A stretch of 64,000 bases of DNA, from positions 12,708-76,707 of the forward strand of contig CAZYUB010000002.1 in NCBI GenBank assembly GCA_964650515.1. The letters are read 5' to 3'. Both the position numbers and the translations under genes were made by a program. This document shows, in pieces, positions 8,288-62,865 of the stretch (position 1 is its first letter; each line of letters opens with the position of its first letter). Source of the DNA: an uncultured Planctomycetia bacterium (GTDB taxonomy: Bacteria > Omnitrophota > Gorgyraeia > Pluralincolimonadales > Pluralincolimonadaceae). The notes under the pieces are model-generated. The model did not search any database. It worked only from the letters and a program-made list of their open reading frames with translations, and was not told the origin of the DNA.

Positions 8288-8288
8288 T

Positions 8289-11491: not shown

Positions 11492-11492
11492 A

Positions 11493-24552: not shown

Positions 24553-24558
24553 TAAGCC

Positions 24559-25401: not shown

Positions 25402-25417
25402 TCTAGGGAGGTTAGAG

Positions 25418-27391: not shown

Positions 27392-27392
27392 T

Positions 27393-31852: not shown

Positions 31853-32298
31853 TAGACGGCGTAAAGGTAATACCGCTCAAGAAGATATCGGACGAGAGGG
31901 GCACGATCATGCACATGCTGAAGAATACTGACCCCCATTTCGAGCAGTTCGGCGAGGTCTATTTCTCGACCGCTTATCCCGGAGTGATAAAAGGATGGCA
32001 TGAGCATACGAAACAGGTCCAGTTCTACGCAGTTATAAAGGGGATGATCAAGCTCGTCATGTGCGACAACAGGCCGAAATCCCCTACATACAAGGAGCTT
32101 ATGGAGGTCTGCGTAGGCGACGATAATTACCAGCTCGTCAGGATACCTGCCGGCGTAATAAACGGTTATAAGAACATCGGGACGGATACAGTGATAGTTG
32201 CCAACTGCTCCACGCTGCCGCATGAGCCTAACGAGATGCTCCGGTACGACCCTCACGGGGACAAGGTCCCTTACGAATGGAAAAGAATAGATAAGTAG
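31849..32298 (+). CDS. cupin-fold NDP-sugar epimerase/ketoisomerase (RmlC/FdtA-like)
   Basis: 149 aa; 'DERGTIMHM', 'KGWHEH' His pair and β-rich composition typical of the dTDP-4-dehydrorhamnose 3,5-epimerase/WxcM-like domain. Confidence 0.55.
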   Translation: MIDGVKVIPLKKISDERGTIMHMLKNTDPHFEQFGEVYFSTAYPGVIKGWHEHTKQVQFYAVIKGMIKLVMCDNRPKSPTYKELMEVCVGDDNYQLVRIPAGVINGYKNIGTDTVIVANCSTLPHEPNEMLRYDPHGDKVPYEWKRIDK

Positions 32299-32299
32299 G

Positions 32300-34094: not shown

Positions 34095-34097
34095 TAA

Positions 34098-35246: not shown

Positions 35247-37066
35247 AAATCAAATCGTTCATCGTATCTTCCATGATATATGCCGCGGCCTCGCTATTAT
35301 TGCTTGTCAATGTGACGGCCGGAGAAGGTTTTTACGAGAGTTGGGACACGGCCAGGTATATAGCCATATATTTACTTATCTCGGTGCTGTACTTCTCCAA
35401 AGTAAAGTTATCGCATGGAGTGAATATCGCTGCGGGAATGATATCCTCGGTAATATTCAGCCTGGGAGCGATGCTTATAAGGATGAACGGAGTTTTACTG
35501 GATGTGCCATCCCCCCTGAAGATACAAAAAGTATATTTCGTGGTAATATTGTTCTCATTTATATGTTTCGTGTTAGTTATGTCGATGATAAATATGGCTG
35601 CAGCGGTACGGTGGGCGCGCGGAAAAGACACGGGCCCTGGACGCGGTTTCTACCTGTCGTTCCATTATATAGCGCTTATCCCGTATGCCATATATGAGTT
35701 GTGTGTGCCGGGCGGGCAACACGGTTGTACTGCATTGGGTGTCGCACTGTGTATTTCGGCGGCAACCATATATTTGCTGCATATCGGGCGCATTCGCGAA
35801 GCGATAAAAAGGGCGGTCCTTTACCTTTGGGATGCAAAAAGGTTCCTTGCCGTTATATTCATATTTGCGCTTGCGGCAAGGGTCATGTTCGCCTTCCAGC
35901 TGACGCACAACCTGCCTGAAGGGTTCATGGAGGGACCGGATACGCAGGAGATCCACAACGAGTCAATAGAGCTCTCAAGGACATGGGATATCCTTAACGG
36001 GAAGCCGGTATTCCTTAACCAGAAGGGTTCCGCGGTGATATTTTACGCGGCGATCTACAAGGCGTTCGGAGAAGACCCGCTGTACGGCCGGCTGGCGGAC
36101 GCGATACTCGGCGCGTTATGCGTGTTGATGGCCTTCTATATAGCTGACAGGATGTTCGGAGCCACGGCCGCGAAGATAGCGGCGGCACTCGGCGCCGGGT
36201 ACGGTTATCTTATTCAATACGGCGTGTATATAGGCACGGAATCTATAGGCCTTTTCTCGCTCATGCTGTTCGTGTGCGGAGTGATCGCGGTGGAAGGAAA
36301 ACGCGGCATTATGCCGTATATGTTTGCGCTTGTTTCGGGCTTGAGCTTCGCCGTATGCGTCATGGCGAGGTCCGAATACTATTATGCTATACTACCGGCT
36401 TTCATATGGGTAGCATGGACATTGAGGAAGAGTAAGGCGCATATGCTGCCTTTCTTCGCGGGTTTCGCGGTAATAGCATTGTTATGGTCATGGAGGAACA
36501 TGATAGCGTTTGGTGATTTTACGATCTCGCACCTGCTGAGCCCCGCGTTCAAGGATGAGTGGCTGGGGCAGCTCTGGCAGTTCGAGAAAGGAAGGTTCGC
36601 CGAGGCGGGCATAATGGTGTCCGGCGTAGGGGATATGTTCGCGCAGCTGCTGCTGCATCCGGAGGCCGCGTTCGGGATATTGATGCCGCATATCGCAAAG
36701 GGTTTCTACAGCTTCTGGGATTACAACGTATTCTTCACGCCGGCATTTATATTCCTCGAGCCGAAAAACTCCTGTTATAATATGGCGCTGTGTTTATATC
36801 TTTACATGTTCATGATAATTGGCTTTTTTATCAAAGGGAAAGCAAGGAGCGCGGCTTTGTTCCTTATATTCCTTATCGCGTTCAAGACGGTCAGTTACAT
36901 ATTTACGACTACACCGACATTTTACGAAGAGGGCAGGCTTATGCCTCTTTTTAAGGACTGGTACAGGTTCACTATTATCCCGTTCACGCATGTGTTCATG
37001 GGCGCTGGGATCGCGTGGTTGATATCAAGGGCGCGTGACGCACAAACAGGGAAGGCAAAAGAATGA
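35243..37066 (+). CDS. polytopic GT-C fold membrane glycosyltransferase candidate (ArnT/PMT_2-like)
   Basis: 'FYAAIYKAFGEDPLYGRLADAILGALCVLMAFYIADRMFG' matches the ArnT/PMT_2 N-terminal loop-helix signature; more than 12 predicted TM helices. Confidence 0.55.
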   Translation: MKIKSFIVSSMIYAAASLLLLVNVTAGEGFYESWDTARYIAIYLLISVLYFSKVKLSHGVNIAAGMISSVIFSLGAMLIRMNGVLLDVPSPLKIQKVYFVVILFSFICFVLVMSMINMAAAVRWARGKDTGPGRGFYLSFHYIALIPYAIYELCVPGGQHGCTALGVALCISAATIYLLHIGRIREAIKRAVLYLWDAKRFLAVIFIFALAARVMFAFQLTHNLPEGFMEGPDTQEIHNESIELSRTWDILNGKPVFLNQKGSAVIFYAAIYKAFGEDPLYGRLADAILGALCVLMAFYIADRMFGATAAKIAAALGAGYGYLIQYGVYIGTESIGLFSLMLFVCGVIAVEGKRGIMPYMFALVSGLSFAVCVMARSEYYYAILPAFIWVAWTLRKSKAHMLPFFAGFAVIALLWSWRNMIAFGDFTISHLLSPAFKDEWLGQLWQFEKGRFAEAGIMVSGVGDMFAQLLLHPEAAFGILMPHIAKGFYSFWDYNVFFTPAFIFLEPKNSCYNMALCLYLYMFMIIGFFIKGKARSAALFLIFLIAFKTVSYIFTTTPTFYEEGRLMPLFKDWYRFTIIPFTHVFMGAGIAWLISRARDAQTGKAKE

Positions 37067-38022
37067 TAAAAGGCAGCAGGATATTCCTGACGGGCGGGGC
37101 CGGGTTCATCGGTTCGGCCCTGATAAGGCGGCTTATCGAAAATAACAAAGTCACTGTATATGATAACCTGCACCGTGATGCGCTCAAGCATACGGGTCTA
37201 GCCGATCACCCGAACCTGAAGTTCGTGAACGGGGACGTGCTCGACGCGGCGAGCGTCGAGGGGAGCATCGGTGATTCGGATATCATAGTTCACCTCGCGG
37301 CTATCGCCGGGGTCGATACCGTGCTTTCGATGCCGGTCAGGACGATGGAGGTGGCGCTGATAGGCTCGTATAACATGCTGAAGGCATGCGCCGGCCGCAA
37401 GGGGATAAAGAGGTTCATAGATTTCTCTACGAGCGAGGTATACGGCGCGGTCGCGAGGGACGTAAAGGAAAGCGATGCGACCCCGGTCGGCGCCGTAGGA
37501 GAGCCGAGATGGACGTACGCGGTAAGCAAGCTTGCCGCCGAGCATCTTGCGTTCAGCTATTACATGCAGCAGAAGCTGCCCGCCGTATCCATAAGGCCCT
37601 TTAACATATTCGGGCCTATGCAGGTGGGCGTTGGCGCTATACATATATTCATCAAGAAGGCGTTGAGGGGGGAGCCGATAACGCTCAATAACGGCGGCGG
37701 ACAGGTAAGGTCGTGGTGCTATATTGACGACATTGCGGACGCGGTCCTTCTTTGTATGGAGAAGGAAGCCGCCGTCGGGCAGGCGTTCAATATAGGCAAC
37801 CCGCAGAACACCGTCACGATAAAGGAACTCGCGGAGATGGTAAAGAAGGTTACCGGGTCTGCGAGCGGCATAGTGCCGGTCAACAACGACCGCGCCGAGG
37901 TCGAAGTAAGGATACCCGATATAGAAAAAGCGAAGAAACTCCTGGGTTTCATGCCTAAGGTCGGGCTCGAGGAAGGCTTGTCCAGGACCGTCGACTGGTA
38001 CAGAAAAGAACAGAAGGGGTGA
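37063..38022 (+). CDS. NAD-dependent epimerase/dehydratase (UDP-sugar 4-epimerase/decarboxylase-like extended SDR)
   Basis: '[14 protein letters not shown]', 'STSEVYG', 'YAVSKLAAE' YxxxK; 319 aa. Confidence 0.7.
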
Positions 38023-38026
38023 AGCG

Positions 38027-38545
38027 ATGAAAAGACCGGAATCCCACGGAAGCGGCGCATGCAAACGCTCGCAATTCGCGAAGATAGGCAAAGGAGTAGT
38101 GATCGAGAAAGGGGCGCTATTCTTCCATCCCGAGAATATCGAGATAGGTGATAACGTATATGTCGGGCATTACGCGATAATCAAGGGTTACTACAGGAAC
38201 AGGATGAAGATAGGAAGCGGGACGTGGATAGGCCAGCAGGCGTTCCTGCACAGCGCTGGCGGCATCACGATCGGCAAAGGCGTGGGGATCGGCCCGCATG
38301 TCCAGGTCCTGACATCGTCGCACGGGACCGGCGGCGCCGGGACCCCGGTAATGCGCAATAAGCTGCAATTCAAGCCCGTCATAATAGAGGACGGTTCGGA
38401 CATCGGCACCGGGGCAATCATACTGCCGGGAGTCAGGATCGGCAAGAACGCGATAATAGGCGCGGGAGCGGTGGTCACGAAGGATGTCCCTGCGTCATCG
38501 ATAGCCGTCGGGAACCCGGCAAAGGTAATAAAGAAAAGGAAATGA
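38027..38545 (+). CDS. hexapeptide-repeat (LbH) sugar O-/N-acetyltransferase (WbbJ/maltose acetyltransferase-like)
   Basis: Tandem hexapeptide '[13 protein letters not shown]', '[32 protein letters not shown]' and tail 'VGNPAKVI'. Confidence 0.75.
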
Positions 38546-39228
38546 AGCCCGTAATCTCGGCCATAGTGATGGCATATAACGAGGCTGCGAGCATAGATGA
38601 CACATGCCGCGAGATACACGGAGAATTATCCCGTATCGGCGACCCGTTCGAGCTCCTTATCATAGACGACGGCAGCACCGACGGGACGTCCGCGAAGGCC
38701 GACTCTATCGCCGCTTCCCTGCCGTACAGCAGGGTCGTGCACCATGCGGCAAATTCGGGCCTCGGGGGCGTATACAGGACGGGCTTCTCGGCCGCAGAGG
38801 GCAGTTATGTGACGTTCTTCCCGGCAGACGGGCAATTCCCCGCCGATATAATAGGGAAGTTCAGGCCCATGATGGGCGAATATGACATGGTGCTCGGATA
38901 CCTCCCCGAGAGGAAAGGGCAGGCGTTCGCGAAATTCCTGTCTAAGGCGGAGAGGTGCCTCTATGCCGCGCTGTTCGGGAAATTGCCGGTATTCCAGGGG
39001 ATAATGATGTTCAGGAGGGAACTGCCGGGCATGTTCAGGCTGAAGTCCTCCGGCAGGGGCTGGGCGGTCGTCATGGAGCTCATAATAAGGGTATCCCGCG
39101 CGGGTTTCAGGATAACGAGCGTCCCGACCGGATACCGGCCGCGGAAAAGCGGTTCATCGAAGGTCAATAACCTGAGGAATATCGTCGCAAACCTTGTCCA
39201 GGTCATCGTGCTGAGGTTCAATATATAG
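38542..39228 (+). CDS. GT2 polyprenyl-phosphate glycosyltransferase (DPM1/ArnC-like, short soluble form)
   Basis: '[14 protein letters not shown]...[11 protein letters not shown]...[14 protein letters not shown]...FPADGQFP' as in 23617..24552 and 49246..50184. Confidence 0.65.
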
Positions 39229-39229
39229 C

Positions 39230-40765
39230 ATGAAAAGGCCCGTAGCCATAGCGTTGCTGTTGCTGATGAACCTTACGGCGCATTTCATGCCGTTCGAAAG
39301 GGCGGCGCTCGCGCCGGATGATTACGCGACGCTCGTAAGGTCGCTTCCGGCCGTGGAATGCGGGACTTCACACATAAAGGCGTATGCAGACAGGCCGCTG
39401 AATTACGCGTTCCTCGCCCTGCAGGCAAAATACATAGGCGACAATGCCGGGCTGGCGTTCATCCTGTTATTCCTGTCCGCCTGCGCGCTTTTGCTGGCCG
39501 TATTTATGCTGCTTGAAAGGATATTCGGGGATACAGCCGCGGCTTTCATAGGGGCGGCGGTATTTTGCCTGCTCCCGAACAAGCTTGAGACGTACCATAC
39601 GCTAATATTCCTTAATATTAACCTCGTATCGCTTATATATGTCGTGAGCTTCGCGCTATTCATCGCCCATGCAGGCACAGGCAGGAGAGAGGTCCTTCTT
39701 GCGTCAGTGTTGTTGTATGCCGCGGGCATATTCTGGTATGAAGTGGGATTTTTTATGCCTTTGCTGATGTTATCCTATTGTTTCCTGGACAAGAGATGCA
39801 GGCCGGTATCGGTAATGCCTTTCATGGCGGTGGCGTTGTTTTATGCGGTCTACAGGTTCACGGGGGCCTACGGCATGGCTGCCGGAGCGGAAGGGCAGTC
39901 CCATTCCGTCTCATTGGCTATGCTGCCGCTCAACATCAAGGAGCTGTTCCATCATTATGCCGGAAGGTATGCGGCCCGCAGCGTATTATACGGTTTCTAT
40001 AATTTCGCGGCTATGCAGACCGTATGGCTTGTCGCCGTGTCGGCGGCGCTGCTTGCGCTCATCATTTCGGTGAGGTCTGCTCTTGCGGGCACGGGAACGC
40101 CGGAAATAAGAAAGGGCACCTTTATGCTCGGGCTGGCGGCGTTCTTAACCATGATGTTGCCGATATTGTTCAATGATAAGGGAGGAATAGGCGGAAGGCA
40201 CCTGATGCTTCCGTCGATAGGCGTGTCCATAATGGCGGTGCCGGCGCTGATGTACGCGGGCAAGGCGTGGAAACATATTCTGATAGCGTTCATAATTATT
40301 ATGTCCGTCGTGGGAGCAGGGAATGCATGGACACAGGTGGTCGCCTGCCGGATAAACGCGGCGGTGTTCGGGTATTTGAAGTCGAACGGCCCGGCGCTGG
40401 GATCCGCAAAGGCCGTGGTAATAGATACGAACAGTTTTGCGGAGAAGATAAAATATACGCTGGTGAAGAGGGATTTTAACCTCTTTAACACATATTACGG
40501 GGCGCAGGCTTTTGAGGATTGGGGGCTCATAAGCATGGTAAGGTGGGCGGCGAAGGACAGCGGAAAGCAGGTATACGTATCCATAAGCTCGCCATATGCC
40601 AAAAAGGGCGAGGTCAAGTTCTGCGTTTACGAATATAAAGGATACCGTTCAAAGGGCGTAAAGGACATACGCCTGCCCGCCGATGGGACGTTCGTGGTAG
40701 GAGCTAAAGAGGTATTCGGAGGCGATACGGATGCAGGCATCAGAAAGCTGGGCATAAGGAAATGA
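39230..40765 (+). CDS. polytopic membrane protein (GT-C-like glycosyltransferase or polymerase candidate)
   Basis: About 12 hydrophobic helices with a short soluble C-terminal tail; no soluble catalytic domain; lies in the GT2/GT-C context. Confidence 0.4.
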   Translation: MKRPVAIALLLLMNLTAHFMPFERAALAPDDYATLVRSLPAVECGTSHIKAYADRPLNYAFLALQAKYIGDNAGLAFILLFLSACALLLAVFMLLERIFGDTAAAFIGAAVFCLLPNKLETYHTLIFLNINLVSLIYVVSFALFIAHAGTGRREVLLASVLLYAAGIFWYEVGFFMPLLMLSYCFLDKRCRPVSVMPFMAVALFYAVYRFTGAYGMAAGAEGQSHSVSLAMLPLNIKELFHHYAGRYAARSVLYGFYNFAAMQTVWLVAVSAALLALIISVRSALAGTGTPEIRKGTFMLGLAAFLTMMLPILFNDKGGIGGRHLMLPSIGVSIMAVPALMYAGKAWKHILIAFIIIMSVVGAGNAWTQVVACRINAAVFGYLKSNGPALGSAKAVVIDTNSFAEKIKYTLVKRDFNLFNTYYGAQAFEDWGLISMVRWAAKDSGKQVYVSISSPYAKKGEVKFCVYEYKGYRSKGVKDIRLPADGTFVVGAKEVFGGDTDAGIRKLGIRK

Positions 40766-42114
40766 AAAGGGTCTCGGCGGGATTTCTGGCGGCCTGCGCG
40801 ATCTTCGGCTCGTCGTATCTCATATCACCGGGTTTTGCGTTATGTATACTGTTGTCCGTTGCGTTCTTTTACGCGGTCCGCAGGAATACCGGCGAAGACG
40901 ACAGGATGTTCGTATTATTCATGATATCGGCCGCGGTGGTCCTGAGGGTCGCGGGCCTCATAATACTGCAATACAAATGCCTTTCGATGGGCCAACTGGA
41001 TATCTTCGGGGACGCCCAGGACAACATCATACAGGGGATAAATATAAGCGATTCAATCAGGAACATGAAAGAGATCCCGGTCACGCCGCAATCGATATTA
41101 TCGAGCAGGTACAATACGCATTCGATGACAATATTCAACGGGATATTCTTTTTATTGTTCGGACACGATATCGTATCGTTGAAATACGTAAATATACTGG
41201 CGATATGCGCGACGGCGTGGATAATATACGACTTCGCAAAAAATATATATTCCGGCGCGGCAGGCAGGATCGCACTCGCGATAATACTATTCTGGCCTAC
41301 TGTATTCATCTGGTCGTTGACAGACCTCAAGGAGAGCCACCTGTTGTTCACGGTCGCATGCTCGTTCTGGCTGCTTGACAAGGCGGCAAGGGGGAAGGGA
41401 GTGTTAAGGAAGGCCGTTTTCGTCACGCTGTCGGTCCTGTTCGCGTTCTATTTCGTACTGCTGAAGATAAAGTTGATGATGCCGGTTTTCATCCTATCCG
41501 CGTCATTGATCGTGCTTTATAACGCGCTGCATTACGGGTTCTCTAAAGACCCGGCACTGTCGCGGAAGGTGTTGTACGTATCGCTTGTACCCGCAGCCGC
41601 GATCATAATGGCGTTCGGCGGCCGCATATTACAGGCCGCTAAGGGAATGTATGCGTTGATACTACATTACCATATAGGGTTCCTTAACAGCGGAGGATGG
41701 AATGTAAACCTTATAGGCGACCAGTCACAGTGCTATTTCACGCTGCAATTTATAACAAAATATATCGTAAAAGCCTGGTTGTATTTCCTTCTTGAGCCGC
41801 TTCCGTGGCATTTTTATTCGTTTAGCCTTACCGTTACATATCCGGTGATGATCACATGGTACATCCTCGTGGCGTTCTCCGTTGTCGGTATAGGAAAGAT
41901 ATTTTACTCTGGTAAGGCGAAAGAGATTTTTGCGATGCTTGTATTTATGACTATATATATCACGGTAGTCGGAATGTCTGTGGCGAACATAGGGACTTTA
42001 ATACGTTTTAGGGATGCAATGGTGCCTATCGTGGCGTTGTTCGCGGGGATAGGGCTATCGGGGATATCGCGGATACCTACGGTAACGGAGGAGAGATGCA
42101 AGAACATACGATAA
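40762..42114 (+). CDS. polytopic membrane protein (GT-C-like glycosyltransferase/O-antigen polymerase-like candidate)
   Basis: 450 aa, at least 10 hydrophobic helices; ATGA overlap with the upstream gene. Confidence 0.4.
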   Translation: MKRVSAGFLAACAIFGSSYLISPGFALCILLSVAFFYAVRRNTGEDDRMFVLFMISAAVVLRVAGLIILQYKCLSMGQLDIFGDAQDNIIQGINISDSIRNMKEIPVTPQSILSSRYNTHSMTIFNGIFFLLFGHDIVSLKYVNILAICATAWIIYDFAKNIYSGAAGRIALAIILFWPTVFIWSLTDLKESHLLFTVACSFWLLDKAARGKGVLRKAVFVTLSVLFAFYFVLLKIKLMMPVFILSASLIVLYNALHYGFSKDPALSRKVLYVSLVPAAAIIMAFGGRILQAAKGMYALILHYHIGFLNSGGWNVNLIGDQSQCYFTLQFITKYIVKAWLYFLLEPLPWHFYSFSLTVTYPVMITWYILVAFSVVGIGKIFYSGKAKEIFAMLVFMTIYITVVGMSVANIGTLIRFRDAMVPIVALFAGIGLSGISRIPTVTEERCKNIR

Positions 42115-43547
42115 GGAAGGCCTTGATACCGGCGGCCGGGAAAGGTATAAGGGCATATCCGAAGAGCAGGTATCTTCCGAAGACGCTCCTCGAGATAGAA
42201 GGAAAACCCCTGATCGAGAATAACATAGCGATATTAAGGGACCAGCTCGGGATAAAGGACATTACCGTGATCGTGGGGCACCTTGCCGATAAGATAAAAG
42301 CCCGGCTCGGGGACGGGAGCCGGTTCGGGGTGTCTATCAAGTATTTGGATTGCGGCGATCCCGACGAAGGCCTCGCGAAGGGCATACTGCTGGCAGAGAA
42401 GGAGTTCGACGAGCCGTTCATATGCATATTGGGCGATGAGTACTACTTCGGTTCCAACCATTCCGGGCTTGCGAAGATCCCGGCAGACGCCGGCTATGTC
42501 TGCGCGGTAAAGCACTCGACAGACATTAAGTCCATCAAGAAAAATTATAACGTCGAGATCGAGGGCGGGTTCGTCAGCAGGATAATCGAGAAACCGGCCG
42601 AGATCAGGCAATGGAACCTGGGGTGCGGGACATATCTGCTCAGGCCGGAGATATTCGGCCTGATACGCAGGACGAAGCCGTCGCACAGGAGCCATAAGGT
42701 CGAATTCATGGATGCGCTCGACCTCGCCGTGCAGGAAGGCGCGAAGGTGAAGCCGTACTACCTCGAAGGCATATACTATAACATCAATACCATCGAAGAC
42801 GTGAACCAGTGCAATTATGATATCCGTTCGCTGAATTTCGGAAAATACAAGGTAAGCGTCGTGATACCCGCGCATAATGAGGAAGCGACCATAGCTACCG
42901 TCATCGAGGACCTGCGGCAGCACGTCGACGAGGTGCTTGTAGTCAATAACGGCTCGAACGACAGGACCTCCGAGGTCAGCAGGAAGGCCGGCGCGAGGGT
43001 CGAGGAGGTCTCGTTGAAGGGCTACGGCGACACTATAAAGCACGGCCTCGAAAAGGCGTCCGGCGACATACTCATCGTGACCGAGGCGGATTACTCGTTC
43101 CGTTCGAAGGATATAGGCAAGTTCCTCGAGTACATAAAGGATGCCGACATGGTCATTGGCACGCGGACGACGCGGCAGCTCGTTGAACAGGGGGCGAACA
43201 TGAGCCTGATGCTGCTGCTCGGGAACCTCGTATACGCGAAGATAGTCGAGATCCTCTGGTGGGGCATCGACCCGCCGCGTTTTACCGATGTCGGCTGCAC
43301 CTACAGGGCCATTTGGAAGAGCTCGTTCGAGAAGATAAAGGGAGACCTGAAGTCTACGGGGCCGGAGTTCTCCGTCGAGATGATGATAAAGACGCTCAAA
43401 TACAAACTGCGCGTCCTTGAGATACCGATATCGTATTACCCGCGCCTTGAAGGCGTATCGAAACATTCGAAGAACTGGTTCGGCATCCTGAGGACTGCCT
43501 CGAGGATGATGCGCCTTATAATAAGAGAAAGGCTGGACAACAGGTGA
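42096..43547 (+). CDS. bifunctional sugar-phosphate nucleotidyltransferase / GT2 (DPM1-like) glycosyltransferase fusion
   Basis: N-terminus 'ALIPAAGKGIRAYPKSRYLPKTLLEIEGKPLI' (NTP_transferase). C-terminus 'VSVVIPAHNEEATI...LVVNNGSNDRTSEV...ILIVTEADYSF' (GT2). Confidence 0.6.
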   Translation: MQEHTIRKALIPAAGKGIRAYPKSRYLPKTLLEIEGKPLIENNIAILRDQLGIKDITVIVGHLADKIKARLGDGSRFGVSIKYLDCGDPDEGLAKGILLAEKEFDEPFICILGDEYYFGSNHSGLAKIPADAGYVCAVKHSTDIKSIKKNYNVEIEGGFVSRIIEKPAEIRQWNLGCGTYLLRPEIFGLIRRTKPSHRSHKVEFMDALDLAVQEGAKVKPYYLEGIYYNINTIEDVNQCNYDIRSLNFGKYKVSVVIPAHNEEATIATVIEDLRQHVDEVLVVNNGSNDRTSEVSRKAGARVEEVSLKGYGDTIKHGLEKASGDILIVTEADYSFRSKDIGKFLEYIKDADMVIGTRTTRQLVEQGANMSLMLLLGNLVYAKIVEILWWGIDPPRFTDVGCTYRAIWKSSFEKIKGDLKSTGPEFSVEMMIKTLKYKLRVLEIPISYYPRLEGVSKHSKNWFGILRTASRMMRLIIRERLDNR

Positions 43548-44992
43548 AGCGCGCGATAAGGAAAGCGCTGCTTTGCTATCCGCCGGTGGGGCTGTTCCAG
43601 AGGGGCGAGGAGAGGTGCCAGGCGGATATCGAGGGCTCGGCGACACAGGCGCCGCATGCACCTAATGACCTCGGGTATATCGCCGCTTGCCTCGGAAGGC
43701 GGGGGATAGAATGCATAATAAAGGATTATCCGGCAGAGGGGGTGCAGGAGGCGGCCGTGCTGGAAGAGGTAAAGGCATACTCGCCGGACATTATGCTTAT
43801 CAGCACGACTACGCCTACGTTCCCCGAAGACGTCCGGTTCCTGGAGAAGGTAAAGTCGGCTCTGCCGGGGACATTTACCGTCGCTAAGGGAAGTTGTTTC
43901 TGCTCGCTTCCGCTGGATGAACTTCAGAAATGCGAATACAGGCCGCTCGACGCTGCCATTTACGGGGAAGCCGAATTTATAATAGAGGAACTGGTTAAAG
44001 CTTTGGGGGCGGACGGCCGCCTCGACGGAGTAGAGGGTATAATAATAAATATCGGGACGAAGGATGCCGCGAGGACCGCGCGCCCGCGATTCCGTGAGGA
44101 CCTCGATTCCCTGCCGTTCCCAGCGAGGGGCCTGATGAACAACGGGCTCTACAGGAACCCGCTTACCGGCAGGCCCATGGCCACTATACTTGTCTCCCGC
44201 GGGTGCCCTTCACAATGCATATTTTGCCTTACGCCGGTAATATCCGGGCATAAGTTCAGGAAGAGGTCCGTCGGTAATGTCTTGGATGAGATAAAGGACT
44301 GCGTTAAGAATTACGGCATCAGGGATTTCTTCTTCCGTGCCGACACATTTACAATGGATAACGAATACGTGAAACAGCTGTGCGGCAGGATACTGGATGA
44401 AGGGCTCAAGATAACATGGGTGGCTAATAGCAGGGCCGACGTGGTAAGCAAGGAGCTCCTCGCGGCGATGAAGGCGGCGGGATGCGCGCTCGTCGCGTTC
44501 GGGTTCGAATCCGGCAATGAGGATATACAGCGGAAGATCAAGAAGAACGCGTCCGCGGATGACGCGCGCCGCGCGGTCAGGTTATGCAGGGAAGCGCGGC
44601 TGAAGACGCTCGGGTTCTTCATGATAGGTTTCCCGTGGGACGATGAGAAGACGGTTGAGGACACGGCCGCGCTGGTCAGGGAACTCGATTGCGATTTCAT
44701 AGAAGTGCATATAGCGCTGCCGTTCGAGGGCACGGAGCTCAACGACATATGCCGGGACCTCGGGCTCATAAAGGAGACATCGGTCGGATACAACTATTTC
44801 TCGAACCCTTACGGCGGCGGGACGCTGCACCTGGGAAGGGAACGCCTGGCACAGCTCAGGAAAGATATCATAAAGAGACAGTACCTGAGGTTACCGTATA
44901 TATTTCGCATGCTTACGCACTGCAGCTCTTTTTATGAATTCATGAACTACATCAAGTACGGTTTCAGGCTCCTCGGAAAGGTCGCGTGTTGA
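43544..44992 (+). CDS. B12-binding domain radical SAM protein
   Basis: 'VSRGCPSQCIFC' CxxxCxxC. N-terminal B12-binding-like region 'IGSATQAPHAPNDLGYIAACL' as in paralogues. GTGA overlap start. Confidence 0.7.
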   Translation: MKRAIRKALLCYPPVGLFQRGEERCQADIEGSATQAPHAPNDLGYIAACLGRRGIECIIKDYPAEGVQEAAVLEEVKAYSPDIMLISTTTPTFPEDVRFLEKVKSALPGTFTVAKGSCFCSLPLDELQKCEYRPLDAAIYGEAEFIIEELVKALGADGRLDGVEGIIINIGTKDAARTARPRFREDLDSLPFPARGLMNNGLYRNPLTGRPMATILVSRGCPSQCIFCLTPVISGHKFRKRSVGNVLDEIKDCVKNYGIRDFFFRADTFTMDNEYVKQLCGRILDEGLKITWVANSRADVVSKELLAAMKAAGCALVAFGFESGNEDIQRKIKKNASADDARRAVRLCREARLKTLGFFMIGFPWDDEKTVEDTAALVRELDCDFIEVHIALPFEGTELNDICRDLGLIKETSVGYNYFSNPYGGGTLHLGRERLAQLRKDIIKRQYLRLPYIFRMLTHCSSFYEFMNYIKYGFRLLGKVAC

Positions 44993-46119
44993 GGAAAATA
45001 TCATTGCCCGTATACGAGGCATCGCGCTGCCGATTGTATGCGTTGGGAAGGAACGCGATGTATGCCGCGTGCAAGGCGTTCGGGCTGAAAGAAGGCGACG
45101 AGATATTGACGCCCGCGTTCGATTGCGACGGGTCTCTACAGCCGTTCAGGGCGCTCGGGCTGAAACTGAAGTTCTACCGTTCGGACCCGTACACTTTCGA
45201 AGCGGATACGGGCGATATGGAAGCAAGGATGGGGCCGTCTACAAAGATGGTCCACGTCATCAACCATTTCGGAATGCCCCAGCCGTGGGACAGGATAAAG
45301 AGGATATGCGTGGCCTCGAAGGTCCCCGTCATGGAGGACTGCGCGTATTCGCTGTTCTCGAAAGGATTCGGCACGAACGGCGATGCAGCGATATTCTCGC
45401 TGAGGAAGAACCTGCCGATTGTTGACGGCGGTATGCTGCGTATGAACAACGGGAATTACGCGCTGGGCCGTCAGGCAGAACGCGCGCCCCTATTCTACCG
45501 GACGGAATCGGCAAATGTGCTGACATTGGTCAAATCGGCGATGGGGTATTATAAGGCGCCAGAAGGGCTCAGGCGGATGCTCAGGAAGGCAAACCCGGCG
45601 GTCGAACCGCCTCCGCCTTTGTACTCGGAGAAGGAGAAGGGGTATCCCGAGTGGCCCCTGCGCGATCATACGGGCGAGGAGTTCAGCTGCGATTATGAAA
45701 GGCCCATCTCCGCGTTGGCGAGGTTCCAGCTGGAAGGCCTGCCGGAAGGATATTATAAAAATGCCGCGGAGATGAAACGGCGCTATTATTCGGAGCTCGC
45801 CGGGAAATTTGCCGGGCTGAACGGGTTACGGGTGCTCTGGCCGGAACTTCCGGAAGGGATAGTCCCTTTTTGCCTTTCCGTATTAGTGCACCGGGACAGG
45901 GACAGCATATTCGCGGAATTAAGGAAAAGATATGACGTGATGGCCTGGCCGACGCTTTCGCAGGAAGTCATCGACCGGCTTGACGAATACCCGGAAGTGG
46001 AGATCCTCGGCAGGAAGGTCCTGCAGTTCAACCTGCCGGCCGACAAGGTCATGAGGCGGGATTATCCCTTGTATATAGGCAGGCTCGCGCGCGATCTCAC
46101 CGCGCTTACGGAAAGATAG
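44986..46119 (+). CDS. DegT/DnrJ/EryC1/StrS-family PLP-dependent sugar aminotransferase-like (N-terminally short, divergent)
   Basis: 'NAMYAACKAFGLKEGDEILTPAF' aligns with the DegT 'alhlal.algi..GDEVivP.f' segment; 'VPVMEDCAYS', 'IFSLRKNLP' matches the SFxxxK PLP-lysine motif. GTG start. Confidence 0.5.
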   Translation: MLRKISLPVYEASRCRLYALGRNAMYAACKAFGLKEGDEILTPAFDCDGSLQPFRALGLKLKFYRSDPYTFEADTGDMEARMGPSTKMVHVINHFGMPQPWDRIKRICVASKVPVMEDCAYSLFSKGFGTNGDAAIFSLRKNLPIVDGGMLRMNNGNYALGRQAERAPLFYRTESANVLTLVKSAMGYYKAPEGLRRMLRKANPAVEPPPPLYSEKEKGYPEWPLRDHTGEEFSCDYERPISALARFQLEGLPEGYYKNAAEMKRRYYSELAGKFAGLNGLRVLWPELPEGIVPFCLSVLVHRDRDSIFAELRKRYDVMAWPTLSQEVIDRLDEYPEVEILGRKVLQFNLPADKVMRRDYPLYIGRLARDLTALTER

Positions 46120-47220
46120 ATGGAATACCGCTGGATCGAGGATATAGAGGATTTCAGGAAGATAGCGGGAGAATGGGACATGCTCGTCTCCAGCGGAGAC
46201 TCGCACCCTTTCCTGCTGTCGGATTTCATAATAACGTGGTGGAAATATTTCGGGAAGGGCAAGAAACTCAGGATATTCGTCATCGAGGAGGGCGGAAAGG
46301 TCAAAGGCGGCCTGCCTTTATGCCTTAACAGGGGCGGCGCAAGGGAGGGTTTCGCGGATCTCCTCCATTATATAGGAGAGGTCGCCGCGAATTACACGGA
46401 ACCGCTTTATTCAAACGGGAAGCCGGAGATATTCCCGTTGCTGGCCCGTGCGCTTTCGGAGAGGAACGACTGGGATGTCTTTTGCCTGACCGATATCAGG
46501 GAAGGCAACCGGTTCCTGAAGGAGCTCAAAGGCGCGACGGGTCAGAAGGGCTGTTCGATATTCCTCATAAGCGACCATATGAACTACGCGATAGACCTTG
46601 GTAAGGGGCTCGACAGTTATCTTTCGTCGTTATCGCCGAAACTCAAGAGGGACCTGAGATCGAAGCGCAAGCACCTCACGCAGAAGTGCGGAGCGATAGT
46701 CCTCGAGAAGGCCTCGGGCGAAAAGGAAGTTGGAGAAAGCGCCGCCCTTTACAAGAAGTTCTCAAGGGAAGCGTTCGCGGCGAGGAACAGGAAGAGCAAT
46801 TTCGAGAACGACAAATACGCGGATTTCTTCGGGGAATTCCTAGTCCTGATGGAAAAGGCCGGCCGGCTGGACGCGCACCTGCTCAAGGCGGGAGATACCG
46901 TGCTTGCGATAAGCTTCGCGTACAGGTTCGGCAGGGGCTTCAACTGGGTCCTTACGGCGTTCGATTACGAATATAAGTATTACAGGCCGGGATATATCCT
47001 CATAGAGGAATTACTGAAGGAGATATGCGCGAGGGGCGAGACATATTACAACTGGTACGGGCACGGGCGTTTTTACAAGGACCAGCTTTGCAACCTGCTT
47101 AAGCCCCTGTATAAGGTGATGATGGTAAGGAAGACGTTGAAAGGTTCGTCGTACCTGCTTTCGCAAAAAGCCAAGAAGGCGGTCAAGTACCTGAAAGGGC
47201 TGGTCGACGGTGCAAAATAA
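46120..47220 (+). CDS. FemAB/BioF2-like (Acetyltransf_6, CelD-like) GNAT-fold acyl- or aminoacyltransferase
   Basis: 366 aa. The N-terminal 'W..L......PFL...F...W' segment and C-terminal 'GYILIEELLKEICARGETYYNWYGHG' resemble the BioF2-like acetyltransferase family. Confidence 0.45.
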   Translation: MEYRWIEDIEDFRKIAGEWDMLVSSGDSHPFLLSDFIITWWKYFGKGKKLRIFVIEEGGKVKGGLPLCLNRGGAREGFADLLHYIGEVAANYTEPLYSNGKPEIFPLLARALSERNDWDVFCLTDIREGNRFLKELKGATGQKGCSIFLISDHMNYAIDLGKGLDSYLSSLSPKLKRDLRSKRKHLTQKCGAIVLEKASGEKEVGESAALYKKFSREAFAARNRKSNFENDKYADFFGEFLVLMEKAGRLDAHLLKAGDTVLAISFAYRFGRGFNWVLTAFDYEYKYYRPGYILIEELLKEICARGETYYNWYGHGRFYKDQLCNLLKPLYKVMMVRKTLKGSSYLLSQKAKKAVKYLKGLVDGAK

Positions 47221-48181
47221 CCCGGTACGCCGCCGCCTGCGCAGGGATTACCATGCCGTAAGGCGCGTCGTCGCGCATGCAAAAAATGCGCTTACGGACC
47301 CTTCGCCGAAACTCATAGTCCTTACGTACCACAGGATATTGCCTGCTGCCGGGCATAACCCTTTGAATACGGCTGTGTCGGAACGCGCCTTCGTAAAGCA
47401 GGTCGAGGGCGTTGCAAGGAAGGCGGGCATAATATCGCTGTCGGATGCGGCCGACCAGCTCAGGAACGGACGCGTTAAACGGGATTTGCAGGCGGTGATA
47501 AGCTTTGACGACGGGTATTCGGATAATTACGGGACGGCCTTCCCGCTATTGAAGCGGAAGGGCCTACCGGCGGTATTCTCCGTTTCGACCGCTTATATCG
47601 GCGCAGGTCTGCCGCTTTGGGATTCCGAAGCGATAATGAGGATAATCCGCGGGAATATAGGCCGGATAGACACCGCAGGTTTCACTGCCGAGAGAAGCAT
47701 GGCGGAATCGGCGCGTTCTTTCGCTTTCAGGGTCTTCGATGAACTGAAATCGAAGGACTTCGCGGTGATAGGAAAAGTCCTCGAATTCCTGAGGGAGAAG
47801 GACCCCGGATACGGAAACGAGGAAGGGCGCTGCATGACGTGGGAACAGGTAAAGGAATTGTCCGATGCGGGCATGGAGATCGGGTCGCACGCAGTGACCC
47901 ATAGGTCCCTCGCGAGGATACCCTTCGCGGAGGCGGAGTCCGAGGTGAACGCAAGCAAGGCCGAAATAGAGAAGAGGACCGGAAGGCGCTGCGCCCATTT
48001 CGCTTTCCCGTTCGGAAGCGCAAGGGATTATAATCCGAGACTGATAGAATGCGTAAGGAAGGCCGGATACGGGACCTGCCTGCTCAATATACACGGTTAC
48101 AACAGGATGGGCGAGGGCGCTTTCGCGCTGAAGAGGACTGTCATGGAAGAGGATACGGACGTGAGGTTCATACTTGGCTGA
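47210..48181 (+). CDS. polysaccharide deacetylase (NodB-homology, CE4 family)
   Basis: 'VISFDDGYSDNYGTAFPLLKRKGLPAVFSV', 'MEIGSHAVTHRSL' are NodB motifs 1-3. GTG start. Confidence 0.65.
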   Translation: MQNNPVRRRLRRDYHAVRRVVAHAKNALTDPSPKLIVLTYHRILPAAGHNPLNTAVSERAFVKQVEGVARKAGIISLSDAADQLRNGRVKRDLQAVISFDDGYSDNYGTAFPLLKRKGLPAVFSVSTAYIGAGLPLWDSEAIMRIIRGNIGRIDTAGFTAERSMAESARSFAFRVFDELKSKDFAVIGKVLEFLREKDPGYGNEEGRCMTWEQVKELSDAGMEIGSHAVTHRSLARIPFAEAESEVNASKAEIEKRTGRRCAHFAFPFGSARDYNPRLIECVRKAGYGTCLLNIHGYNRMGEGAFALKRTVMEEDTDVRFILG

Positions 48182-49244
48182 GAATATCATGCCGGAAGTG
48201 GATGTCATAATCCTGAGCTATCTCGATTACGGGAGGCTGCAGAAATGCGCCGATTCCGTATTGGCGTCCACCTACCCGAACCTGAAACTGGTCATAGCCG
48301 ATAACGGATCGGGGCCTAACGTCATCGCTGCCGTAAAGGAGAGGTATTCAGGGAACCCTAAGGTGGCAATAATAGAGAACAGGGAGAACCTCGGTTACGC
48401 CGAGGGCAACAACGTCGCGTTGAGGGCGACCGGAGGCAAATACTGCGTGATCCTCAACAACGACGCGATAGTCGACCGTAACTGGCTCGAGCCGATGGTC
48501 GAATACCTCGACAGGAACGCGAAAGCCGGCGCGTGCCAGCCGAAGATACTCGACATAAAGGACCCGCGCAGGTTTGAGCATTCCGGCGCCGCCGGCGGGT
48601 ACCTGGACAGGTACGGTTACCCGTTCATGAGGGGAAGGCTGTTCGATACGCTCGAGAACGATGAGGGCCAGTATGACGACCACGCATCGCTCGACTGGTG
48701 CTCCGGGACCGCGTTCATGGCCAAGCGCGAAGTGCTCGAAAAGGTGGGCCTTTTCGACCCGATATATTTCATGTATGGCGAAGAGAACGACCTCTGCTGG
48801 AGGATAAAGCGCTGCGGATACGACATCGCGTTCGTGCCGAGGTCGAAGGTCTACCACGAAGGCATGGGCTCTATAGGGAAACGCCCGCTTTTCAAGCTTC
48901 ACCTTAACTACAGGAATAACATAATACTGCTCATGAAGAATTTCAGCATGACCCAGCTGGCCGTAAGGCTTCCGGTAAGGATGGCGCTGGACGCCGTTAA
49001 TATCCTGTATTTTATCGCCAGCAAGCCAATGAGCTTCAGGTTTGCCAGCATCGTATGGGCTTATTGCGAGCTTGCGATCATGCTGCCGCGGATTATCCTC
49101 GCGAGGATACGCACGCAGCGCCTGTTCCGCGAACTCGGAAGCGAAAACGCCCCGCTATACCCGATGTACCAGATAAGCGTCGTCTTCCAGTATTTCCTGA
49201 TGGGAAGGAAAAAATTCAGCCAATTGAAATTAAGGAGAGCGTAA
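48174..49244 (+). CDS. GT2 family glycosyltransferase
   Basis: 'VDVIILSYLDYGRLQKCADSVLAST...LVIADNGSG...LNNDAIV'. The start could be TTG 48174 or ATG 48189. Confidence 0.7.
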   Translation: MAENIMPEVDVIILSYLDYGRLQKCADSVLASTYPNLKLVIADNGSGPNVIAAVKERYSGNPKVAIIENRENLGYAEGNNVALRATGGKYCVILNNDAIVDRNWLEPMVEYLDRNAKAGACQPKILDIKDPRRFEHSGAAGGYLDRYGYPFMRGRLFDTLENDEGQYDDHASLDWCSGTAFMAKREVLEKVGLFDPIYFMYGEENDLCWRIKRCGYDIAFVPRSKVYHEGMGSIGKRPLFKLHLNYRNNIILLMKNFSMTQLAVRLPVRMALDAVNILYFIASKPMSFRFASIVWAYCELAIMLPRIILARIRTQRLFRELGSENAPLYPMYQISVVFQYFLMGRKKFSQLKLRRA

Positions 49245-49245
49245 T

Positions 49246-51896: not shown

Positions 51897-51897
51897 T

Positions 51898-56031: not shown

Positions 56032-56033
56032 AC

Positions 56034-57926: not shown

Positions 57927-57938
57927 GTGAGGGTAAAG

Positions 57939-59783: not shown

Positions 59784-59798
59784 AAAGGAGCGGGCAAA

Positions 59799-61893: not shown

Positions 61894-61897
61894 ATAA

Positions 61898-62863: not shown

Positions 62864-62865
62864 CA

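Follow-up and report, generated by a model that had tools for sequence, protein, structure and literature searches.

A sugar-1-phosphate nucleotidyltransferase fused to a DPM1-type glycosyltransferase: a candidate activate-and-load enzyme family of uncultured bacteria

The window (the whole 64,000-nucleotide stretch of DNA that was analysed) encodes, on a single polypeptide, a sugar-1-phosphate nucleotidyltransferase followed by a DPM1-type GT2 glycosyltransferase. This fusion is not rare, as it belongs to a large uncharacterised family which is frequent in uncultured bacteria. We consider it fairly probable that the protein is a bifunctional 'activate-and-load' enzyme feeding the adjacent GT-C glycosyltransferase. 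The fusion gene and its two domains are as follows:

42096..43547, plus strand: fusion gene, sugar-1-phosphate nucleotidyltransferase and DPM1-type GT2, 483 aa, single ATG-to-TGA ORF
42117..42830, plus strand: N-domain, RmlA/ST0452/GlmU-N-type nucleotidyltransferase, aa 8-245
42849..43544, plus strand: C-domain, DPM1/AglJ/ArnC-type polyprenyl-phosphate glycosyltransferase core, aa 252-483

A Shine-Dalgarno GGAGG is found 4 nt 5' of the ATG, and the translation contains all the strings that the sequence-only reading had quoted (VVIPAHNEE, VVNNGSNDRT and TEADYSF) as well as G-K-G-I-R at residues 15-19. HMM domain calls assigned both halves to the families named in that reading, above the Pfam cutoffs: NTP_transferase (PF00483) on residues 8-224 with 60 bits (cutoff 21.2) and Glycos_transf_2 on residues 254-379 with 74.3 bits (cutoff 23.3). 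The AF2 model displays a pLDDT of 85.4 and a pTM of 0.82 and, given this pTM and an interdomain linker of ~ 6 residues, it suggests a fixed two-domain unit. That the single ORF would be an assembly or frameshift artefact merging two neighbouring genes is practically out of the question. Indeed, the in-frame junction is collinear both in a 98%-identical Omnitrophota MAG (locus L004) and in an independent JGI contig (locus L084), with only third-position, synonymous-type substitutions and neither a stop nor a frameshift, and the gene call made independently for L084 is one 483-aa product. Furthermore, homologues number more than 1,200 (more than 1,237 at E ≤ 1e-5) and, among the matches listed, 120 out of 120 carry both domains on one chain of 472-558 aa.

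These homologues, of ~ 480 aa and more than 46% identical, come from many phyla, all from metagenomes; a relative is encoded in 246 species-representative genomes, and the source names of the cluster members are all generic. The comparison covered 82 loci with fused sequences spanning 46-100% identity; the fusion coordinates were anchored by tblastn and the neighbours grouped by all-ORF clustering. Mean column identity is 66% along the full length, and the catalytic residues examined, in the N-domain as in the C-domain, do not vary in any of the 82 loci. The fusion reached no equivalog cutoff of the curated NCBIfam models, and no description of a nucleotidyltransferase-GT2 architecture was found in the literature searched, which likewise gave no characterised example among Arn, Gtr or DPM systems.

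The assignment of the N-terminal part to RmlA/GlmU-like nucleotidyltransferases with a G-x-G-x-R signature holds, on the Pfam match and on the aligned catalytic residues. These are G15-x-G17-x-R19, K29, D114, K166 and N231; G15-K-G17-I-R19, K29, D114 and K166 align with the GGSGTR, SKQ, GDN and EKP motifs of RmlA, and the G-x-G-x-R loop together with K29, D114 and K166 is invariant in 82/82 loci. The fold agrees with the RmlA/GalU/GlmU-N class. The best NCBIfam match is Arch_glmU (110.6 bits for a cutoff of 292), along with AglF on residues 8-240 (103.9 for 400), rmlA_long (94.9 for 320) and rmlA (63.3 for 360). Given that the RmlA/GalU/GlmU/AglF equivalog cutoffs are missed, substrate specificity is not assignable.

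The C-domain is DPM1-type rather than processive, as had been proposed from the letters alone. Its best solved-structure match, by sequence and by fold, is PfDPMS (PDB 5MLZ), and its best full-length matches are PfDPMS, AglJ (NCBIfam model on residues 252-454, 104 bits for a cutoff of 325), a haloarchaeal Dol-P-hexose transferase, ArnC and PpgS, the similarity to DPMS and ArnC running through the half that holds the interface helix and the acceptor loop. A processive GT2 synthase (of the cellulose, chitin, PNAG or hyaluronan kind) was ruled out by the absence of both a Q/RxxRW motif and a multi-TM channel; the similarity to PgaC is limited to the N-terminal nucleotide-binding part (NCBIfam, E 2.4e-7, residues 226-334).

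In PfDPMS, Asp91 binds metal and donor, Arg117 positions the Dol-P phosphate, and the acceptor loop is held by Glu12, Arg202 and Lys208 (PMC5526996). Asp91, Arg117, Glu12, Arg202 and Lys208 map to D332, R357, E262, R450 and K456 of the fusion, all invariant or nearly so among the 82 loci (R357 and R450 in 82/82, K456 in 81/82). The acceptor-phosphate Arg is R117 in PfDPMS, R122 in GtrB and R128 in ArnC, the acceptor-loop Arg being R202 or R205, and a DADLQx motif is common to the three enzymes (PMC5526996, PMC12690121). The counterpart of this motif in the fusion family is E-A-D-x-[S/T]-F: the metal-binding Asp is kept (D332) while the first Asp is replaced by Glu (E330) and the metal-binding Gln by Ser/Thr (S334 in the window protein), and an invariant Phe (F335) stands in place of the sugar-contacting His/Asp/Asn. 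The second phosphate ligand on interface helix 1, which is R131 and S135 in PfDPMS, R137 in ArnC and K132 in GtrB, shows a further difference. Indeed, Arg131/Ser135 align to Ser370/Leu374 of the window protein, and position 374 is Arg in 79/82 loci, as read from a profile alignment in a stretch of low pLDDT. The fusion has in common with PfDPMS its GT-A core and interface helices, the metal-binding Asp, the Arg117 equivalent and the Arg and Lys of the acceptor loop, but differs from it in the DADLQH motif (EADxS/TF) and at the Ser135 position, and scores under the thresholds of the curated DPM-like models. The donor is probably not GDP-mannose.

TM analysis of the whole protein detected neither a TM hairpin nor a TM anchor. 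The C-domain holds one hydrophobic segment at most, the interface helix at ~ 366-389, and the protein ends with a basic amphipathic helix (461-481), so that the C-domain represents an anchor-less subtype of polyprenyl-phosphate GT2. It differs in this from ArnC and GtrB-type enzymes, which have a two-helix TM anchor, and from PfDPMS, which has four TM helices. Human DPM1 has no TM helices either. The same is seen in mycobacterial Ppm1/D2, from a protein with a D1/D2 domain arrangement (PMC3485146). Compared with these DPM1-type synthases, the fusion has an additional N-terminal nucleotidyltransferase domain.

The genes surrounding the fusion in the window are the following:

37063..38022, plus strand: SDR NDP-sugar 4,6-dehydratase/decarboxylase-like enzyme (Pfam Epimerase, GDP_Man_Dehyd)
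38027..38545, plus strand: left-handed beta-helix (LbH, hexapeptide) acetyltransferase (Pfam Hexapep; WcaF-like, 96 bits)
38542..39228, plus strand: small soluble GT2, 228 aa (PF00535, 74 bits; weak PgfS, ArnC, AglJ and PpgS matches), possibly another DPM1-like enzyme
39230..40765, plus strand: polytopic membrane protein, 511 aa, 9-10 TM helices
40762..42114, plus strand: GT-C glycosyltransferase, 450 aa, ~ 10 TM helices, ArnT/AglB/PMT fold
43544..44992, plus strand: B12-binding radical SAM enzyme, 482 aa (Pfam Radical_SAM and B12-binding)
44986..46119, plus strand: DegT/DnrJ/EryC1-type sugar aminotransferase (Pfam, 60.9 bits)
46120..47220, plus strand: Acetyltransf_6 (FemAB-like GNAT) acyltransferase (Pfam, 65.7 bits)
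47210..48181, plus strand: polysaccharide deacetylase family protein, PF01522 (Pfam, 73.5 bits), which we take to be the family of ArnD
49246..50184, plus strand: polyprenyl-P glycosyltransferase of the canonical GtrB/ArnC/PgfS type, ending in a two-helix TM hairpin
50181..51896, plus strand: membrane protein, 571 aa, 3 TM segments (strict) or 9 (lax)

Three GT-C membrane proteins had been proposed around the fusion, 39230..42114 being given as one upstream feature. This feature consists of two ORFs, 39230..40765 and 40762..42114, and the GT-C assignment stands for the latter, which shows the fold together with the conserved acidic residue close to its N-terminus. Its stop overlaps the fusion start by 19 nt and it is presumed to be the consumer of the lipid-linked sugar. 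The other two proteins fall in no detectable family: 39230..40765 has no Pfam or NCBIfam match even at E ≤ 5 and 50181..51896 has no Pfam (E ≤ 5) or NCBIfam match, and for both the hhalign probability against a GT-C alignment is 0.1. A marginal BLASTP similarity links the 511-aa and 571-aa proteins (E 0.003 over 126 residues), while hhalign among the shallow alignments of the flanking membrane proteins gave no significant relationship. The 39230..40765 ORF is kept in position in L004, L005, L008 and L084 and could encode a second transferase, a flippase or a polymerase.

On its other side, the fusion is translationally coupled to 43544..44992 via a GTGA overlap, the top NCBIfam match of this radical SAM enzyme being HpnJ at 192 bits, far under the cutoff of 577. 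The SDR matches dTDP-glucose 4,6-dehydratase (176 bits), UDP-xylose synthase (157 bits) and the ArnA C-domain (130 bits), all below the NCBIfam cutoffs. Located 5.7 kb downstream of the fusion, 49246..50184 matches PgfS (275.8 bits) and ArnC (187 bits), again below the NCBIfam cutoffs, and its TM hairpin (helices at ~ 227 and ~ 262) contrasts with the hairpin-less C-domain of the fusion. The window as a whole is a 64-kb island with many further glycosyltransferases.

Of the 82 loci, 32 have, no further than 300 bp from the fusion, an ORF of at least 300 aa with at least 7 TM segments, for a background expectation of ~ 8%, an enrichment with a crude binomial P of ~ 2e-14 which is approximate because the loci are not phylogenetically independent. 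Within 2.6 kb such an ORF is present in 39 of the 57 loci with full flanks, about one third of these well-flanked loci having no polytopic neighbour at this distance. Among 69 such neighbours, 28 match PMT_2, 12 PMT, 3 DUF2142, 2 YfhO, 2 GT87 and 1 DUF2079, counts that can overlap, and GT-C neighbours of the fusion match WsfD, Agl23, YfhO and PMT_2 models. The fusion is strongly tied to GT-C-type membrane proteins across the family, and in the window it adjoins one with the GT-C fold. Minimal modules exist as well, for example L001, where the fusion is immediately followed by one polytopic membrane protein with no sugar-tailoring genes nearby.

Other recurrent partners are B12-radical SAM homologues (within 7 kb in 17/82 loci, adjoining in 10), PF01522 genes (within 7 kb in 15/82, directly adjoining in 11) and methyltransferases. 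DegT and SDR homologues each occur in 11/82 loci, LbH acetyltransferases in 13/82 and Acetyltransf_6 in 3/82 only. Given the recurrence of PF01522, B12-radical SAM and methyltransferase partners, the fusion loci suggest, by analogy, an Arn/Lgm/PpgS-like logic. In Planctomycetota-type loci, MurQ (above cutoff) and NagA-like genes adjoin the fusion; together with the PF01522 partner and the Arch_glmU-type match of the N-domain, these neighbours hint at a HexNAc as the sugar.

In the Lgm system, LgmA, LgmC and LgmB are respectively the DPM1-like GT2, the deacylase and the GT-C. The lgmA-C genes are required for the glucosamine of Bordetella lipid A (PMC4993483), and in ArnC-ArnD-ArnT (lipid A aminoarabinose) and PpgS-Rv3779 (arabinogalactan galactosamine) the GT2 puts an N-acylated aminosugar on polyprenyl-P, a deacylase removes the acyl group while the sugar is lipid-bound, and the GT-C then delivers it outside the membrane (PMC12690121, PMC3485146). 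As in these systems, the window encodes together a DPM1-like GT2 (the fusion), a PF01522 protein (47210..48181) and a GT-C (40762..42114), and it also has DegT and SDR genes matching Arn-type enzyme classes; however, Arn, Lgm and Ppg systems obtain their NDP-sugar from separate enzymes or housekeeping pools, and among the genes assigned around the fusion none was recognised as an ArnE/F-like flippase. Haloferax volcanii AglF and AglJ are among the best NCBIfam matches of the two successive halves, so that the fusion looks like these two archaeal enzymes placed in tandem on one chain, although AglF and AglJ are separate proteins and the fusion scores far below both equivalog cutoffs. AglF is a glucose-1-P uridylyltransferase and AglJ a Dol-P-hexose synthase. 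Two-gene modules of a Pren-P-sugar synthase and a GT-C, like the fusion with its GT-C, are also known for side-chain glycosylation (WsfH/WsfD, CsbB/YfhO, GtrB/GtrC and PgfS-type pairs), but their synthases carry no nucleotidyltransferase domain. In GlmU and in Archaeoglobus fulgidus IPCT/DIPPS (PDB 4MND), the partner domains, a left-handed beta-helix acetyltransferase and a CDP-alcohol phosphotransferase respectively, are unrelated to GT2, and the products are not lipid-linked sugars.

The explanation we favour, and which we hold to be fairly probable as a whole, has four steps. The N-domain would make an NDP-sugar from an NTP, most likely UTP or dTTP, and a sugar-1-phosphate, that of a hexose or N-acetylhexosamine being the likeliest. 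The C-domain, as a DPM1-type inverting GT2, would then move the sugar onto polyprenyl (undecaprenyl) phosphate, its interface helix and basic amphipathic C-terminal helix, instead of a TM segment, keeping it on the cytoplasmic side of the membrane. The NDP-sugar might even be channelled directly from one domain to the other, as the sequence-only reading had proposed. The polyprenyl-P-monosaccharide would next be flipped. Some lineages would tailor the sugar beforehand, while it is lipid-bound, with a PF01522 deacetylase (as the parallel with ArnD and LgmC suggests), a methyltransferase and a B12-radical SAM enzyme as candidates. Finally, the adjacent GT-C (40762..42114) would use it to modify a glycoconjugate of the envelope beyond the cytoplasmic membrane. 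We infer both activities, the polyprenyl-phosphate acceptor, the consecutive order of the steps, the identity of the sugar and the final acceptor.

The strongest rival, unlikely on balance, is an Arn-type pathway in which the fusion unites the opening and the closing step in the cytoplasm rather than two consecutive ones. The N-domain would release an NDP-hexose, which the SDR (37063..38022), DegT (44986..46119) and an N-acyltransferase (38027..38545 or 46120..47220) would convert into an N-acylated amino-deoxy sugar; the C-domain would then load it onto polyprenyl phosphate, PF01522 would deacylate it and the GT-C transfer it, following the Arn order (PMC12690121). ArnA likewise joins non-consecutive steps. 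In favour of this rival, every class of enzyme encoded by the arn operon (DegT, DPM1-like GT2, SDR, PF01522 and GT-C) is found on one strand within 11 kb, the SDR resembles ArnA-C and UDP-xylose synthase, its homologues recur with the fusion as do those of DegT and LbH, and the altered S334 and F335 in the DXD region suggest an unusual donor. Since SDR, DegT and acyltransferases, whose usual substrates are NDP-sugars, could act between the two steps, the 'one-polypeptide route' of the sequence-only reading may be non-consecutive in the window. However, ~ 70 of the 82 loci have no SDR and DegT genes within 7 kb, minimal fusion-plus-membrane-protein modules occur, and the active-site residues are essentially identical in all contexts, an argument for a single shared donor that is made directly. 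Moreover, the window being an island with many other glycosyltransferases, its tailoring genes could serve these.

It is improbable that the acceptor of the C-domain is a soluble phospho-acceptor, as in glucosyl- or mannosyl-3-phosphoglycerate synthases, or another lipid, giving a self-contained compatible-solute or glycolipid route. A GpgS-like identity was judged unlikely because the similarity stops after the first 82 positions, i.e. at the nucleotide-binding half, whereas R357, R450 and K456 are conserved and a hydrophobic interface helix is present. GT-C enzymes take polyprenyl-P-sugar donors, and a soluble product would leave the family-wide GT-C adjacency unexplained. Still harder to accept is a fusion with only one catalytic domain, the other being a degenerate sensor or regulatory module such as an allosteric NDP-sugar or NTP binder. 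Nucleotidyltransferase folds are regulatory elsewhere, and eIF2B and GMPPA-type proteins are found among the structural matches, but the invariance of the checked catalytic residues of both domains over 46-100% identity and the conservation over the whole length speak against it.

A more far-reaching form of the activate-and-load reading, which we regard as rather improbable, is that the fusion keeps an NDP-sugar supply of its own at the membrane, from which it loads polyprenyl-P, the sugar being remodelled while lipid-linked by the HpnJ-like B12-radical SAM enzyme and PF01522. The GT-C would then install a head group of a type that is not known from polyprenyl-phosphate donors. Such remodelling could be a C-methylation, or a deacetylation and ring contraction in the style of HpnI/HpnK/HpnJ leading to a carbocyclic aminocyclitol.

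To our knowledge, all periplasmic or extracytoplasmic glycosylation by GT-C enzymes draws on polyprenyl-phosphate monosaccharides as donors, be it the modification of lipid A, the side chains of O-antigen and teichoic acid, the mycobacterial cell wall or protein O-mannosylation, and in all characterised polyprenyl-P-sugar synthases that we know of the NDP-sugar is supplied by a separate enzyme. The size of the fused family makes the finding less of a surprise and gives it more generality, and the fusion itself would bring no new chemistry unless the associated radical SAM enzyme acts on the lipid-linked sugar. If activate-and-load is correct, it would offer a one-enzyme chemo-enzymatic path from a sugar-1-phosphate to a lipid-linked sugar and would help to annotate the very extensive glycan islands found in Omnitrophota, Planctomycetota, Acidobacteriota and further uncultured phyla, in which the fusion and its GT-C would constitute a compact, portable two-gene module for decorating the envelope with a sugar not otherwise activated.

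The nucleotidyltransferase-glycosyltransferase fusion is encoded on the forward strand (42096..43547) by a single ORF that starts with ATG, ends with TGA and has 483 codons. A ribosome-binding site, GGAGG, is found 4 nt 5' of its start. The upstream gene runs 19 nt into the fusion before it stops, and the downstream gene starts with a GTG inside the GTGA that it shares with the fusion stop. Every motif quoted in the sequence-only reading is present in the translation, and the two domains claimed there for one polypeptide are both far over their curated Pfam cutoffs, NTP_transferase at residues 8-224 (60 bits) and Glycos_transf_2 at residues 254-379 (74 bits). A copy with 98% identity was found in L004, a Candidatus Omnitrophota MAG, and the gene order of L084, an independent JGI metagenome contig, matches the window from 35 to 52 kb; independent gene calling on L084 gave a fusion product of 483 aa. 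The domain junction is collinear and in frame in these three assemblies (window, L004 and L084), with synonymous-type substitutions as the only differences. Furthermore, when 5.8 billion protein clusters were searched, 1,237 matched at E<=1e-5, and among the 120 matches listed all were 472-558 aa long with 94-100% query coverage and both Pfam domains. Given the three assemblies, the independent call and the number of matches, an assembly artefact is unlikely: the fusion is real. The structure model of the whole protein is confident (pLDDT 85.4, pTM 0.82) and displays a short linker; a structure search retrieved no solved structure spanning both domains.

Homologues in the cluster search came from Omnitrophota, Planctomycetota, Acidobacteriota, Cyanobacteriota, Spirochaetota and Aminicenantales, and a genome scan extended this spread to Gemmatimonadota, Binatia, Myxococcota, Nitrospirota and others. 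Relatives are encoded in 246 GTDB species representatives, the best 80 of the 246 being all MAGs. The cluster homologues bear generic source names such as 'glycosyltransferase', 'sugar phosphate nucleotidyltransferase' or 'dTDP-glucose pyrophosphorylase'. One MAG with Blastocatellia loci, JAEUQN01, has three fusion copies. Three fusion-bearing MAG contigs are titled Klebsiella pneumoniae (L070), Enterobacteriaceae (L083) and Aenigmatarchaeota (L074); these MAGs look mis-binned or mislabelled, since their fusion proteins group with Binatia and deltaproteobacterial-type sequences.

Residue alignment of the N-domain to RmlA shows conservation of R19 (GxGxR), K29 (SKQ), D114 (GD) and K166 (EKP), which are invariant in 82/82 members of the family comparison set. 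Asn231 is likewise invariant among the 82 and falls at the second metal-ligand position, where RmlA has Asp and GlmU has Asn. The domain stays below every NCBIfam equivalog cutoff; it scores best with an archaeal GlmU-type model (110.6 bits), AglF (103.9) and rmlA_long (94.9).

The reading of the C-domain as DPM1/ArnC-like was borne out. With a profile built from 14 family C-domains, PfDPMS, the dolichyl-phosphate mannose synthase of solved structure (PDB 5MLZ), ranks first (1.4e-16, 224/237 positions) and ArnC is aligned near full length (1e-9, 207 positions). A soluble-acceptor (GpgS-like) function, in which the fusion would resemble glucosyl-3-phosphoglycerate synthases, is unlikely; alignment of these synthases is limited to the first 82 positions of the profile. 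NCBIfam gives AglJ (104 bits), the haloarchaeal Dol-P-hexose transferase (75) and PpgS (58) as top matches, all under cutoff, and the domain would act in the manner of DPM1, AglJ, PpgS or ArnC. In PfDPMS, Asp91 serves the metal, Arg117 the acceptor phosphate, and Arg202 and Lys208 the acceptor loop (PMC5526996); residue roles in ArnC and GtrB were also used for the mapping (PMC12690121). By alignment, Glu12, Asp91, Arg117, Arg202 and Lys208 of PfDPMS correspond to E262, D332, R357, R450 and K456, all invariant or nearly so in the 82 members, and it is unlikely that either domain is degenerate. The DADLQx motif of ArnC, GtrB and PfDPMS (PMC12690121) reads E-A-D-x-S/T-F in the fusion family, with Ser or Thr in place of the metal-binding Gln; Phe occupies the sugar-contacting position without exception.

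Ser370 and Leu374 of the window protein align by profile to PfDPMS Arg131 and Ser135, in a segment modelled with low confidence. Position 374, aligned to an acceptor-phosphate ligand of PfDPMS, is Arg in 79/82 family members and Leu in the window; at position 370 a basic residue is common in the family and the window lineage has Ser, the other catalytic residues being unchanged. L004 shares the state of the window protein at both positions (about 43203..43217 in the window).

A motif and TM check found neither a QxxRW motif nor a TM hairpin in the C-domain, and a processive synthase was thereby ruled out. With no hairpin, a single hydrophobic helix (about 366-389) and a C-terminal helix that is basic and amphipathic, the domain is placed in the anchor-less subtype of DPM1 and of domain D2 of mycobacterial Ppm1.

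The following genes surround the fusion in the window.

Upstream: SDR resembling 4,6-dehydratases, UDP-xylose synthase and the ArnA C-domain
Upstream: hexapeptide acetyltransferase
Upstream: small GT2
Downstream: B12-radical SAM protein, best NCBIfam match HpnJ (192 bits vs a cutoff of 577)
Downstream: DegT aminotransferase, Acetyltransf_6 enzyme and PF01522 deacetylase (Pfam)
5.7 kb downstream: canonical GtrB/ArnC/PgfS-type enzyme with a two-helix anchor

Membrane glycosyltransferases of the GT-C fold had been proposed on both sides. This stands for 40762..42114, which overlaps the fusion start and has a GT-C fold. Its PMT_2 score is just under the Pfam cutoff, and among only 43 detectable homologues some carry PF13231 and are named GT39 or ArnT-like. 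The membrane proteins at 39230..40765 and 50181..51896, on the other hand, matched no family by Pfam at E<=5 or by hhalign against a GT-C alignment. The L004 counterpart of the overlapping GT-C (8676..10019) is 72% identical to it, although the fusions are 98% identical; from this sequence comparison, evolution or exchange runs much faster for the acceptor-side enzyme than for the enzyme that makes the donor.

Across the family, an ORF of at least 300 aa with at least 7 TM segments lies <=300 bp from the fusion in 32/82 non-redundant loci, and <=2.6 kb away in 39 of the 57 loci flanked by at least 3 kb in either direction. The polytopic background density of 0.042 per kb gives an expectation of about 8% (crude binomial P about 2e-14). 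Pfam assigned the 69 polytopic neighbours to PMT_2 (28), PMT (12), DUF2142 (3), YfhO (2), GT87 (2) and DUF2079 (1), counts that may overlap; all six are GT-C-type families. These neighbours are highly diverse in sequence while the fusion is at least 46% identical throughout, a pattern consistent with a single conserved enzyme that makes the donor for many acceptor-specific transferases. Minimal modules also occur, as in locus L001, where the fusion is followed by a single polytopic protein with unrelated genes around.

Within 7 kb of the fusion, the 82 loci contain a class I methyltransferase (23 loci), a B12-radical SAM protein (17, 10 adjacent), a PF01522 deacetylase (15, 11 adjacent), an FAD amine-oxidase-like protein (13), a hexapeptide acetyltransferase (13), an SDR (11) and DegT (11). 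A SIS-domain gene is found at this distance in 11 loci, mainly Planctomycetota-type, and the representatives tested are MurQ, the N-acetylmuramic acid 6-phosphate etherase (306.7 bits vs a cutoff of 168). MurQ and a NagA-like deacetylase, 0.05-2 kb downstream of the fusion, form a conserved trio with it in Planctomycetota-type loci (L020, L023, L034, L036, L041, L045, L046, L053 and L054), a tie between the family and the recycling of amino sugars in these lineages. In these nine loci, the SIS-domain loci of the ORF clustering, no polytopic ORF was found within 10 kb of the fusion. Blastocatellia loci (L022, L026, L031, L032, L035, L038 and others) share a conserved operon in the order hexapeptide (NeuD/PglB/VioB-like) acetyltransferase, FAD amine-oxidase-like protein (NCBIfam PRK07233, 480 bits), PF01522 deacetylase, fusion, PMT_2 GT-C, second PMT_2 GT-C and Zn-ribbon class I methyltransferase.

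The best-supported reading is that the fusion is a bifunctional 'activate-and-load' enzyme. It would make an NDP-sugar from sugar-1-P and NTP and put the sugar on polyprenyl phosphate; after flipping, the lipid-linked sugar would be passed to GT-C enzymes. This operon logic is like that of ArnC-ArnD-ArnT, LgmA-C and PpgS-Rv3779 (PMC12690121, PMC4993483, PMC3485146). In the main rival reading, other reactions come between the two steps in the window, where the SDR, DegT and acyltransferases would turn an NDP-hexose into an N-acylated amino-deoxy sugar before loading, and the fusion would link the first and last cytoplasmic steps of an Arn-like pathway. However, the active-site residues are identical even in contexts without SDR, DegT and acyltransferase genes. 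For the activate-and-load enzyme, an N-acetylhexosamine is weakly favoured as the sugar because of the deacetylase, MurQ/NagA and GlmU-type hints. The sequence-only interpretation is largely sound.

Nearly all of the window (1..64000) is one co-directional glycan-biosynthesis island on the forward strand, with at least 10 GT2/GT4 glycosyltransferases. In two segments, 1-4 kb and 20-30 kb, GC is lowered to about 0.46, vs about 0.55 elsewhere. Its other features are as follows.

28199..30094, 35243..37066, 40762..42114: three PMT_2-type GT-C genes
Starts 21780, 22691, 30713, 37063, 61898: SDR dehydratase/epimerase-type genes
Starts 32300, 54074: RmlD-type reductases (54074..54952 over the RmlD equivalog cutoff)
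25418..27391, 56034..57926: two asparagine-synthase/GATase-like genes
11493..13298: ABC exporter
4874..6520, 15710..17206, 19556..21076, 43544..44992, forward: four B12-binding radical SAM genes
8289..9641, forward: second glycosyltransferase/nucleotidyltransferase fusion in reversed domain order, Glycos_transf_2 at residues 6-157 (1e-24) and CTP_transf_3 cytidylyltransferase at 250-360 (2e-10), no TM segments
7550..8287, 14994..15728: stand-alone CTP_transf_3 genes
57927..59783, forward: GT4-type (Glycos_transf_1) fused to a C-terminal DUF218 (90.6 bits)

Four B12-radical SAM genes seem many for one polysaccharide locus and suggest extensive sugar C-methylation or rearrangement.

According to the sequence-only reading, such a fusion is not known among characterised Arn/Gtr/DPM systems. 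In agreement, a literature search of incomplete coverage turned up no characterised polyprenyl-phosphate glycosyltransferase to which a nucleotidyltransferase is fused, and no curated model for the architecture was found in NCBIfam; IPCT/DIPPS is a precedent for a nucleotidyltransferase fused to a transferase using its product. The fusion is a new architecture of a known enzyme kind, widespread in uncultured phyla, and it would gain in interest should the B12-radical SAM enzymes coupled to it turn out to remodel the lipid-linked sugar.
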